NCBI GenBank assembly: GCA_964247135.1
Contig: CAXTTL010000051.1
Location: 1 to 23,299 of the forward strand
Reading direction: 5' to 3'
DNA length: 23,299 nt
Origin: an uncultured Deinococcales bacterium
GTDB taxonomy: Bacteria > Deinococcota > Deinococci > Deinococcales > JAAFIG01
In this document: positions 14,141 through 16,852 of the stretch, in pieces
Numbering within the stretch: the first letter of the stretch is position 1
Layout: every line of letters begins with the position of its first letter
Notes under the pieces: generated by a model
The model's database searches: none
The model's input: only the letters and a program-made list of their open reading frames with translations
Told to the model about the DNA's origin: nothing
Position numbers and translations under genes: made by a program

Positions 14141-14243
14141 GCTCGCAACCCGAGGGTTACGCCTGATTCACCTTTCCCTTAAGGGTTTCCCATACAGGTT
14201 CGCACGGTGTTCAGGATGCTCGAGTATTACCCCAAGCCGAGAA

Positions 14244-14272
14244 AGGGTATCACAGAGTGCTTAAGATGTAAA
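14244..14272 (-). promoter_or_regulatory. Putative sigma70 promoter of rplJL
   Basis: Minus strand TTTACA - 17 nt ending TGA - TACCCT (extended -10). Confidence 0.5.
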
Positions 14273-14338
14273 GGTTTTGAGATTTTGGTTTTGTAGGGTG
14301 CGCTTCTTGACCATAAAATGCACCTTGTAAGTTGGTAG

Positions 14339-14532
14339 TGGAACTCAGCACGACAGATCGCAATGCACCCTGATCCTTGAGATCGTCCCGAAGCGAGATC
14401 GTCGTGCTGCCCGTTTCCAATCGAGTCCGAACGGCTTCTTGACCCTACTACGCCACCTGACGGGGCTGGGTCGCTGCATGAACCTCGAGTTCGCTTTGCA
14501 AGGATGGACGATTGTTGGAAACCCACGTTCCA
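14339..14532 (+). ncRNA. Putative bridge RNA of the IS110 element
   Basis: Two stem/internal-loop domains: CAGCACGAC 14346-14354 / GTCGTGCTG 14401-14409 and GTTTCCAA 14413-14420 / TTGGAAAC 14515-14522; the loops carry target- and donor-matching segments. Confidence 0.8.
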
Positions 14533-14542
14533 GGAGGTCAAA

Positions 14543-15499
14543 ATGCGGAAAGAAGTTTTCATCGGTGCAGACATTAGTAAAACCAGATTAGACGTGTTTA
14601 ACCTTGTCACAGGCGAGATTCTCGAGTTTGAGAACAACCCTGCTGGAATCAAGAAATTCCTGAAATACGCTCGAAAAGCTAAACCCACACTCATCACCTG
14701 CGAAAGCACTGGCGGACTCGAGCAACCTTTGCTCCGCGCGTGTGCCGATACTAAACTCCCAATTGCAGTCCTCAACCCAAGACAAGTCCGCGATTTCGCC
14801 AAAGCAATGGGTAAGTTCGCAAAAACCGACGCGATAGACGCAACCATACTGGCAGAGTTCGGCTCACGAATGCGTCCAGAATTAACCACACCCGCACCAG
14901 AAGAGCTTCGAGCACTCGAGGCAGTCATGAGCCGACGCGCCCAGATTCTCGAGATGATCACAATGGAAACAAATCGTCTTGGCAGCACTCGAGACGCGAA
15001 GGCTCGAGCCAGTTTGGAAGCTGTGATTGAATTTCTGAAAGAACAAGTCAAAGACATGGATTCGCAGATGCTCGAGCTTGTGCGTTCAAACTTGGAACTC
15101 AAAACCTTAGATGAGTTGTTGCAGAGCGTTCCTGGTGTTGGACCAGTGCTGTCTGCGACGTTACTCTCGAGTTTACCCGAACTTGGTCGTGATTCTCGAG
15201 GAGCAATTTCTTCCTTGGTGGGGGTTGCGCCTTTGAACCATGATAGTGGTTCGCACCGTGGAGTACGATTCATTCGTGCTGGTCGTGGGAATGTGCGTTG
15301 TGCATTGTACATGGGGACTCTTTCGGCTGTGCGTTGGAATCCTGCATTGCAGGTGGTGTACGAGCGTTTGGTGTTAGCTGGGAAGGCGAAGATGGTGGCT
15401 TTAGTGGCGTGTATGCGGCGTTTGTTGGGGATATTGAACGCGATTGTGCGGGATCGGAAACCTTGGATGGATGTGACATTGGAGGCTGTAGGGACTTGA
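14543..15499 (+). CDS. IS110 family transposase/recombinase (DEDD RuvC-like plus Tnp_20 domain)
   Basis: 'IGADISK', 'CESTGG', 'KTDAIDA', 'SVPGVG', catalytic-Ser region 'DSGSHRG'; RBS AGGAGG 14532-14537 supports ATG 14543. Confidence 0.95.
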   Translation: MRKEVFIGADISKTRLDVFNLVTGEILEFENNPAGIKKFLKYARKAKPTLITCESTGGLEQPLLRACADTKLPIAVLNPRQVRDFAKAMGKFAKTDAIDATILAEFGSRMRPELTTPAPEELRALEAVMSRRAQILEMITMETNRLGSTRDAKARASLEAVIEFLKEQVKDMDSQMLELVRSNLELKTLDELLQSVPGVGPVLSATLLSSLPELGRDSRGAISSLVGVAPLNHDSGSHRGVRFIRAGRGNVRCALYMGTLSAVRWNPALQVVYERLVLAGKAKMVALVACMRRLLGILNAIVRDRKPWMDVTLEAVGT

Positions 15500-15667
15500 C
15501 TTTTAACACGGCTGCTTCGGGCAGGGTCGCCGTGCGCACCGTCAAGCGCGTACCACCGATTTGGAATTGGTGCGGGCAGATTTTGACAGGCACGAATTTT
15601 GCTCACTCGAGATACCCACCACAATAAACTGGATGCAAAGCCACGGGTTTTGCTCGAGATATCAGGT

Positions 15668-16852
15668 TCAATCAGGGTTGTTGGTTTCAAGCAAATTGTG
15701 AAACGCAAATCCCGCCGCGCCAATCGTGACCGAGTCCAACCCAAACGAGCAACGCTCGACGGTCACACTGCGGTAATCTATGCCAAACAAGCGCCGCTCG
15801 AGTTCTTGGGTGGCGGGTTGAATTAGCGCGTCGCCAAGTTCGGCGACGCGTCCGCCCAAAATCATCAGTTTGGGATCAAAAATATTGGCGAGGTTGCCCA
15901 GAAACGTTCCCAGGTGAATGGCGGTTTTGTGAATGATTTTGACCACAATCGGGTGGCGTTGCTCGAGCAACTCGAGAATCTGTTTTAAATCTGGGCGCTC
16001 GCCCGTGCCAGTCTGGATGGCGCTTTGAATGGCGTTTAAACTGAACAGTGTTTCGGCGCAGCCGACGCTGCCGCACAAGCATTTTTGACCATTTGGGGCG
16101 ACGGTCATGTGTCCCCACTCGCCCGCAAAACCGCGCTGCCCGTGATACAGCCGGTGATCGAGGATCAAGCCGCCGCCGATGCCAGTGGTCATGTGGACGT
16201 ACAGCAGGTCGCCGTCGTGTTTGTGCGATCCAAACAAATATACCGCCATGACCGATAAATTCGCGTCGTTGTCAACAAAAATGCGGTCTGCTGGGATGTC
16301 TGGGATTTGCTTTTGCAACAAACTTAAAAATGGCATGTTTTCCCAACCCAAACTTGGGGCTTTGAGCACCAAACCTCGACCGGCATCGACTGGTCCTGGA
16401 ATGCCGACGCCCAAACCGAGGATGGTTCTGGCGTTTAAAGTCTGATTGGCTCGCAGTTTTTTGACGCATTTCGCCAGACTCGAGATGGCGCTCGTGACGT
16501 TGCTGAAATCCCCCGTAATGCTTTCTCGAGCCAGAATTTCGCCGTCGATGTTGATGGCGACACAACTGATCTCAAACAGGTTTATTTCTGCGCCCAATAA
16601 CGCAAACCTCAAGTCGTTTAAAAAAAGTGGAATCGAAGGTCGCCCCATCGCCAAACTGATCCCACCCTCGCCAATGCGCAGCCAACCGTCCAGCTCGAGA
16701 TCGGTCACCACCGAACTGACGGTGCTTTTGGTAATGCCGAGTTCTTTGGCGACATTGCTTCTCGAGATGCCAGGGTTTTGCCAGACCAGTTTGATGACGC
16801 CACTGCGGTGGGCGCGTTTGGAAGTCATTTTTTCGTTTGAGTTTGAGGTCAT
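15668..16852 (-). CDS. ROK family transcriptional repressor (XylR-like)
   Basis: N-terminal HTH 'ISRSNVAKELGITKSTVS', 'GRP', 'DNDAN', 'GEWGHM...CLCGSVGCAE'. Confidence 0.92.
   Translation of the reverse strand: MTSNSNEKMTSKRAHRSGVIKLVWQNPGISRSNVAKELGITKSTVSSVVTDLELDGWLRIGEGGISLAMGRPSIPLFLNDLRFALLGAEINLFEISCVAINIDGEILARESITGDFSNVTSAISSLAKCVKKLRANQTLNARTILGLGVGIPGPVDAGRGLVLKAPSLGWENMPFLSLLQKQIPDIPADRIFVDNDANLSVMAVYLFGSHKHDGDLLYVHMTTGIGGGLILDHRLYHGQRGFAGEWGHMTVAPNGQKCLCGSVGCAETLFSLNAIQSAIQTGTGERPDLKQILELLEQRHPIVVKIIHKTAIHLGTFLGNLANIFDPKLMILGGRVAELGDALIQPATQELERRLFGIDYRSVTVERCSFGLDSVTIGAAGFAFHNLLETNNPD

Follow-up and report, generated by a model that had tools for sequence, protein, structure and literature searches.

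The best-described relative of the element reported here is IS621 of Escherichia coli (PMC11208160, PMC11208158; PDB 8wt6), an insertion sequence (IS) whose recombination is guided by a bridge RNA. In the excerpts of these papers on which we draw, IS621 combines two Pfam domains and five catalytic residues with a long left end that holds a two-loop RNA, a CT core, a layout of left and right target guides (LTG and RTG) and left and right donor guides (LDG and RDG), handshake bases, a -35 box in the right end with a -10 box in the left end, and a palindromic repeat as the natural target. Counterparts of all these features, candidates in the case of the promoter boxes, are present in an IS110-group element on contig CAXTTL010000051.1 (assembly GCA_964247135.1) from an uncultured Deinococcales bacterium, of which a stretch of 23,299 nt, called the window below, was analyzed. 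We are highly confident of the identification as an IS110-group element with an IS621-type bridge RNA, and of the class of mechanism that this implies. The element differs from IS621 in its target and donor sequences, in the native length of the RTG (7 nt, compared to 4 nt as IS621 is described), in a C at the ninth base of LTG and LDG, in a 39-nt repeat inside the LDG, and in its uncultivated Deinococcota host.

The presence of IS110 members in palindromic repeats was reportedly noted by Tobes and Pareja in 2006. Bridge RNAs have been predicted in 85.7% of the IS110-group elements of ISfinder, with natural guides concordant with their targets (PMC11208160, in the part considered), and insertion into palindromic repeats is likewise described there and in the excerpt of the ISPpu10 preprint. 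IS110 bridge RNAs, the targeting of repetitive extragenic palindromic (REP) sequences and the concordance of guide and target are already in print (PMC11208160, PMC11208158 and, reportedly, PMC1525189), the known mechanism is unchanged by our results, and the ortholog tables of PMC11208160 may already include the present lineage. ISPpu10 and ISPpu9 of Pseudomonas putida, IS110-family elements found in REP sequences, resemble the present one in their site-specific insertion into an intergenic hairpin repeat, and for ISPpu10 the target stem-loop may add specificity. As far as the excerpts on them go, they use another repeat family and other guides, whereas here the insertion is in the apex loop and the RTG tracks the apex variants. 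The IS1111 group with its seekRNA shares the recombinase family and the RNA-guided principle, but its RNA is described in a long right end and it has subterminal inverted repeats, while the RNA of the window lies in a 217-nt left end. The ISCro4 transposase (PDB 9t56) can be likened to the present protein by the protein alone.

We start with the boundaries of the element, which were read directly and re-read by script. At the left junction, AATGCAC (14317-14323) is followed by CT (14324-14325) and TGTAA (14326-14330), and at the right junction ACGGCTG (15508-15514) is followed by CT (15515-15516) and TCGGG (15517-15521). The two junctions have the 2-nt CT core in common, with no longer duplication, and the element ends TGTAAGTTGG and CACGGCTGCT are not inverted copies of each other, that is, the element is without terminal inverted repeats. 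The re-reading confirmed base for base all strings named in the original prediction, which was made from the sequence before the present analysis. The span given there, 14317-15521, contains the element together with flank sequence, 9 bases before its start and 5 after its end. The left non-coding end is 217 nt long and only 17 nt remain after the recombinase stop codon, which is the layout of the IS110 group and not that of the IS1111 group.

Eight close relatives (58-92% protein identity) were found in public metagenome-assembled genomes labelled Deinococcales. CT is found at both junctions in the 8 relatives that have both junctions on the contig, all nine close left ends start with TGTAAGTT, and the right ends, where visible (8/8), finish with an identical 23 nt that include TTGACT and ACGGCTGCT. 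The original prediction had named different ends or unrelated flanks in other copies as evidence to the contrary; the close copies (8/8) instead have the same ends and lie in the same repeat family.

The protein encoded between these ends carries the two domains of the IS110 family. PF01548, the N-terminal RuvC-like DEDD domain, is matched with an E-value of 1.1e-21 (77.7 bits, cut-off 29), and PF02371, the C-terminal domain, with 1.7e-17 (64 bits, cut-off 21.3). The best matches among solved structures are the transposases of ISCro4 (E 2.1e-35, residues 5-307) and IS621 (E 1.5e-31, phmmer). In the alignment to 8wt6, where the PDB chain numbering is offset by +2, residues D10, E54, D96, D99 and S235 fall on D11, E60, D102, D105 and S241, which are reported as the catalytic residues of IS621 (PMC11208158, in the part considered). 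The open reading frame (ORF) is open and all five residues are present. A Shine-Dalgarno-like AGGAGG (14532-14537) stands just 5' of the ATG at 14543, which is a plausible start, while the earlier ATG at 14504 falls within the RNA structure. An antisense open frame of 505 codons (14227-15744, minus strand) extends from flank to flank across the complete IS. The Pfam scan gave no match for this frame, which is probably a by-product of codon usage.

We now turn to the guides. The LTG, AATGCACC, is identical to the left target plus C (8/8), and the RTG, CCCGAAG, is the exact reverse complement of CTTCGGG at 15515-15521 (7/7). The LDG, ACGGCTTC, agrees with ACGGCTGC (15508-15515) at 7/8 positions, and the RDG, TTGCAAG, pairs with CTTGTAA (14324-14330) at 6/7 positions plus one G-T wobble. 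The wobble is at donor position 12, for which a non-canonical pair is found in the IS621 structure as well (PMC11208158), described in the excerpt used only as non-canonical. Since the G at this position is kept in all nine close relatives, the wobble is a family trait and not a sign of decay.

To estimate the chance level, the left end of 217 nt was subjected to mononucleotide shuffling. An exact match for the two target guides together was obtained in 15/200,000 shuffles, and the two donor guides were found together, at no more than one mismatch each, in 393/20,000. The target-guide pair alone is far beyond chance. The donor-guide pair alone is only weakly so, and depends on the comparative evidence.

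This evidence also bears on the possibility that the guide matches come from homology between repeat copies, or from chance, and that no RNA guiding is involved. The flanks of the IS are the two halves of a ca 38-nt hairpin repeat (see below), a full copy of this repeat lies within the left end (14437-14475), LTG and left repeat arm agree in sense, and the donor-guide pair alone is expected by chance in about 2% of cases. However, the RTG is not a same-sense copy of the flank but its reverse complement, and among the close elements with the right flank on the contig it matches its own flank at 7/7 positions in 8/8 cases. Five distinct RTGs occur in this set (CCCGAAG, CCGTCAG, CCGATAG, CCGTTAG and CCGTAAG), and against a non-own flank of different sequence the score is 4-6/7.

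Three more distant clades, the targets of which are not this hairpin repeat, were also considered. To avoid circularity, two copies from one genome were compared in each clade, and the element boundaries were taken from this comparison. The elements of the three clades end on the right with ACAATTG, ACAGCTG and ACCGTTG, in each case before a CT. In a test with 11 elements, the right end plus C was found as a perfect 8/8 match in the element's own left end in 10, with four different right ends represented, and the position of the LDG is constant across the clades at 105-112 nt from the element start. The window is the element with 7/8, and comparisons between non-cognate clades give 5-7. The RTG was 7/7 in 9 of the 11 elements and 6/7 in the other two (L024 and L044; L numbers denote loci).

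The handshake bases give a further comparison. According to the rule described for IS621, the base after each right-hand guide pairs with the non-cognate DNA at position 7 (PMC11208158, in the part considered). The base after the RDG pairs with target position 7 in 16/16 elements (a G where that position is C or T, a C where it is G), and the base after the RTG pairs with donor position 7 in 16/16, with the limit that 5 of the 16 have G at both positions, so that the rule does not discriminate there. As the rule demands, the two handshake bases of the window are both unpaired with their cognate DNA. LDG, RTG and handshake base thus follow the ends and flanks also in the clades with targets other than this repeat, the fold in whose internal loops the guides are located covaries, and both target guides are exact in so few of the shuffles. 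Repeat homology or chance as the source of the matches is largely refuted already, and we regard it as extremely improbable.

The fold was obtained with RNAalifold from nine aligned left ends. It consists of two stem-loops, each with an internal loop, and is closed by an outer helix, the end of which lies immediately 5' of the ribosome-binding site. Three predicted pairs drawn between LDG and RDG were removed, leaving 42, and these are formed in 97.5% of the cells of the alignment, compared to 25-47% when the partners are slid by 1-3 columns. Compensatory changes are found in 12 pairs, compared to 0-2 in the slid controls. A covariance model built from the same alignment and applied to 29 further, more distant IS110 loci (E<=0.01) finds the RNA in 19 of them, directly 5' of the recombinase gene and on the same strand where coordinates were compared (for example, L027, 1312-1490, with the ORF starting at 1504). 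The ten loci without a match are L011, L012, L013, L018, L026, L030, L038, L040, L041 and L042, some of which are truncated. In the window's own genome the model has a single match, which is the window itself. The Rfam scan of the window gave 0 matches at the gathering score, and no family in Rfam 15 matched the bridge RNA; at E<=10, the region 14280-14560 gave a single chance-level miRNA match (E 6.6).

The original prediction placed LTG and RTG in the first loop and LDG and RDG in the second, and this layout is borne out by the covarying fold and by the covariation of guide and flank in the relatives. Its core reading, an IS110 element with a bridge RNA, is supported by the Pfam domains, the catalytic residues, the fold, the guide/flank covariation and the covariance-model matches. 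It lacked three points that are treated below: the hairpin-repeat target, the 39-nt repeat within the LDG, and the C at the ninth base of LTG and LDG. The coordinates of all features are collected in Table 1.

Table 1. Positions of the element, its bridge RNA and the surrounding repeats in the window.
Feature	Position	Strand	Details
IS110-group insertion sequence	14326-15516	+	1,191 bp; second CT core 15515-15516; ends common to 8 relatives
Recombinase gene, 318 aa	14543-15499	+	Pfam; catalytic residues D10, E54, D96, D99, S235
Bridge RNA, approximate ends	14339-14532	+	ca 190 nt, 5' of the recombinase gene; outer helix 14339-14342 with 14529-14532
Target-binding loop	14346-14409	+	basal stem 14346-14359 with 14397-14409; distal hairpin 14371-14375 with 14381-14385
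Target-loop guides	LTG 14362-14369; RTG 14387-14393	+	handshake bases 14394-14395
Donor-binding loop	14415-14521	+	basal stems 14415-14420 with 14515-14520 and 14425-14428 with 14506-14509; model pair 92/201 has no 5' base in the window row
Donor-loop guides	LDG 14431-14438; RDG 14496-14502	+	handshake bases 14503-14504; distal hairpin 14480-14483 with 14489-14492
39-nt hairpin-repeat copy within LDG	14437-14475	+	between guide positions 6 and 7; equivalently 14434-14472 (3-nt ambiguity)
Left donor ACGGCTG + core CT (element right end)	15508-15516	+	sequence, relatives' ends
Candidate -35 of circle-junction promoter, TTGACT	15496-15501	+	overlaps the recombinase stop codon
Candidate -10, TAAGTT	14328-14333	+	joined to the right-end -35 only in the circle
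Left half of ca 38-nt hairpin repeat, TCTTGACC...GCACCT	14305-14325	+	left target 14317-14323, core 14324-14325
Right half of interrupted hairpin repeat, TCGGGCAGGGTCGC	15517-15530	+	right target 15517-15521
Left arm GTAGGGTGCGC of outer GTAG-type REP hairpin	14293-14303		right arm 15532-15540

In the bridge RNAs of the relatives, both distal hairpins have CTCGAG at the apex. This sequence is by far the commonest hexamer of the genome (33,925 occurrences in 5.09 Mb, compared to 1,243 expected for a uniform composition; the next palindrome, TTTAAA, has 3,272), and it is found 136 times in the window and 10 times within 14326-15516.

The target of the element is a family of repeats. The left flank ends with TCTTGACC...GCACCT and the right one reads ..CGGGC..GGTCGC, and the hairpin repeat that they form together occurs at 198 sites (looser pattern) or 135 sites (stricter pattern) in the window's own assembly (386 contigs, 5.09 Mb, 84% complete). 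Its stem covaries among the copies (GACCAT/ATGGTC, GACCCT/AGGGTC, GATCCC/GGGATC), the CT core is at the apex, and the apex bases 3' of CT differ among copies: GACGG is found in 26, TCGGG in 25, AACGG in 25, TACGG in 15 and ATCGG in 5. These five variants are exactly those read by the five RTGs. The close insertions are all (9/9) at the same apex position of the hairpin. The exact 14-nt target of the window has no other copy in its own assembly, where 22 sites are found within one mismatch of it. The hairpin repeat interrupted by the IS is in turn located in the apex of a GTAG-type REP, which gives a nesting three levels deep, and other copies of the repeat are found in the outer context seen here, ggtagggtgcgc / hairpin element / cgtgcgcacc.

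Several further properties of the repeat were observed. It is nearly always preceded by CT (C at -2 in 112/135 copies, T at -1 in 109/135) and followed by T in 96/135. It occurs in head-to-tail arrays, in the apices of GTAG-type REPs, and, in 27-34 cases, in the apex of another member of the same family, at the point where the IS inserts. At L023 (G020:C26), the IS is in the innermost apex of such a nest, flanked by three successive left repeat halves on one side and three right halves on the other. We have also considered the repeat as a non-autonomous IS110 derivative, as CT precedes its insertion point and forms its own end, and as it nests at the apex point used by the IS. This origin is judged unlikely: there is one IS110 gene for some 135-200 repeat copies, a genome of the same genus (G045) has repeat matches and no IS match at E<=1e-40, and a 39-bp double-stranded circle seems physically implausible to us. 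A single-strand Y1 transposase is a likelier mover of the repeat than the IS110 element. Matches to the Y1-transposase family PF01797 are present in the window's own genome at C249, C136, C5 and C1; the repeat pattern has no match within these four loci.

We next consider the mismatch in the LDG. The window scores 7/8 because a 39-nt copy of the hairpin repeat is inserted between guide positions 6 and 7; the first bases of the insert, TC, stand in for the displaced GC, and the only mismatch is at donor position 7. In the excerpt from PMC11208160 that treats mismatches, this is the sole donor position reported as mismatch tolerant in IS621. L009, L023 and L017 are without the insert and have a perfect ACGGCTGC. 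Contigs of two sequencing runs, X2 and X6, from other samples, skip exactly the 39 nt and otherwise differ from the left end of the window at 0/114 and 1/168 positions, respectively. The imperfect LDG is thus a secondary change.

Two types of insert were found in the relatives, type 1 in L007, L008, L022 and L047 and type 2, which is also a genomic subfamily, in L020 and L037. On a recombinase-gene tree (10 rows, ORF DNA only), elements with the same insert state do not form a clade: L020, of type 2, clusters with L007 and L008, both of type 1 (support 100/100), and L037, also of type 2, clusters with L009 and L023, which have no insert (support 100/100). This means that the LDG site was hit, emptied or exchanged several times. 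The insert of the window is also found in L008, which lies at an unrelated locus. Unless there were two independent arrivals of the insert, this suggests that an element bearing it can still move and has done so on at least one occasion.

One may speculate that the repeat behaves as a parasite of a parasite, which repeatedly enters one spot in the bridge-RNA gene (between positions 6 and 7 of the LDG) and is precisely lost from it again; we propose this only tentatively and consider it doubtful at present. The papers considered and a full-text search, with supplements outside the scope of both, gave no report of a hairpin repeat nested in a guide, of its presence and absence among near-identical copies, or of such recurrence at one site. 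The repeat has also entered the recombinase ORF of related copies. In L008 (around 611-649) it adds 36 nt in frame, with no stop, five codons before the catalytic D-x-x-D, and in a contig of run X2 it is found reversed after window position 14963 (14963/14964); both landing sites read CAATGG.

The following course of events is proposed on the basis of what is known of the family. The element would excise as a circle, in which the joined right and left ends would form a promoter that drives the bridge RNA of ca 190 nt and the recombinase gene behind it. In the assembled RNA-protein complex, the first internal loop would read the target, and the second, by means of LDG and RDG, the joined ends of the element itself. 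The DEDD/Ser recombinase would then exchange strands at the CT core, after which the base following each right-hand guide would act as the handshake base for the other DNA. The sequences themselves show the apex of the hairpin repeat as the natural target, and in each close relative an RTG that matches the apex variant it occupies. The candidate junction promoter consists of TTGACT, a 17-nt spacer and TAAGTT, and TTGAC(T/A) is found exactly 15 nt before the right end in 4/4 clades. In the integrated copy, a -35-like TTGACC of the repeat (14307-14312) lies 15 nt from TAAGTT. By eye, TTGAYC in the left arm of the repeat is found 15-17 nt 5' of TAAGTT in L007, L008, L020, L022, L023, L037 and L017, and a hybrid promoter of repeat and IS is conceivable at the longer of these spacings.

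It is important to point out that a number of observations weigh against a functional IS621-type element at this locus. The first group concerns the left-hand guides. The cognate 8-mer scores of the LTG are 8, 8, 8, 6, 6, 5, 5 and 6 in L007, L008, L020, L022, L047, L037, L023 and L017, respectively (L009 could not be scored), that is, perfect in 3/8 close elements and 5-6/8 in the other five, with GCACC always matching and the core-distal bases often not. In the 11-element set the LTG scores 7-8 in five, and in the rest the match is poorer or the best one is at the wrong position. In addition, the ninth base of both LTG and LDG in the window is C and not U, which leaves the core T unpaired by these guides; L022, L047, L009 and L023 have T at the ninth LTG position.

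These results could be explained if the recombinase reads the hairpin shape of the repeat, in which case the RNA pairing would matter mainly on the right side and the LTG would be a loose filter. In line with this, the RTG is perfect in 8/8 close elements while the LTG is imperfect in 5/8, all nine insertions are at the same position of the hairpin apex, and a 2026 preprint, in the part considered, presents the target stem-loop as a second specificity determinant for ISPpu10. However, three of the 8 LTGs are perfect and GCACC is kept in all. Taken as an explanation on its own, shape reading is rather improbable; it refines the RNA-guided explanation and does not replace it.

The second group of observations concerns the state of this particular copy. 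The single-sequence minimum free energy fold of 14339-14532 has the expected shape but is no better than shuffles (z -1.38; 16/200 equal); the decisive support for the fold comes from the alignment of the nine left ends. The candidate junction promoter has 8/12 consensus positions, and a promoter and terminator scan of 14200-15700 gave 0 sites in the integrated copy. The 39-nt insert could reduce or abolish donor recognition. Only one copy of the element is present in its own assembly, searched by DNA, protein, Pfam family and RNA model, and neither a circle junction nor a clean empty site was seen in the other runs, covered as assembled contigs, or in four genomes of the same genus. Among the sequencing runs listed as containing the region, none was of RNA.

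Together with the decay seen in related copies (L020 with two stops, L047 and L037 split or broken, L008 with 36 extra nt in the ORF; L017 is cut by its contig), the single copy, the interrupted LDG and the empty promoter scan raise the question of whether the window holds a correctly built but dead copy, a fossil immobilized by the LDG repeat, the C at the ninth base or unseen changes in the protein. Against this, the ORF is open with its five catalytic residues, the ends are identical to those of the relatives, the insert-bearing L008 is found elsewhere, with the reservation given above, and the mismatch is at the donor position best tolerated by IS621 according to the excerpt. Fragmented assemblies, moreover, collapse or drop repeated insertion sequences. 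The absence of a promoter in the integrated state fits the weak expression reported for integrated IS621 (PMC13626964, in the part considered), but is not evidence for this element. On balance, we lean towards a copy that is still mobile, while a dead copy appears possible but distinctly less probable. The activity of this copy, and the terms intact and reprogrammable used in the original prediction, are what we infer from sequence comparisons.

The surroundings of the element were compared to four genomes of the same genus (L049-L052). In these, window positions 14277-15676 are missing altogether, and the rplJ leader is followed within ca 10-100 nt by the end of the ROK gene. The lacking stretch comprises the outer repeat, the hairpin repeat and the IS plus ca 150 nt more; of the sequence next to the repeats, ca 135 nt up to the end of the ROK gene (15541-15676) are absent from all four. 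Two run contigs were examined as candidate empty sites. One, of run X1 (155 nt, 93% alike, with a short side of 23 nt), joins 14304 to 15533 and is without both the hairpin repeat and the IS; it is weak, and not an empty site of the IS only. The other, of run X2, joins 14325 to 15518, but its upstream sequence differs, which means that it represents another copy of the repeat and not this locus.

Finally, we consider what these results mean for the family. They add a well-documented natural lineage of bridge recombinases from Deinococcota, in which the differences between close relatives are confined to 2-3 bases of the RTG, in step with the apex variants of one repeat family, and which therefore amounts to a natural retargeting series. 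The lineage is at the same time a natural test of how far disruption of the donor guide is tolerated. If the repeat does enter and leave the LDG as proposed above, and if the insert weakens donor recognition, it would constitute a natural, reversible throttle on an RNA-guided transposon. If instead the insert is harmless, it would follow that a guide of a bridge RNA can be interrupted by a hairpin of 39 nt and still be tolerated, a property of use in engineering.

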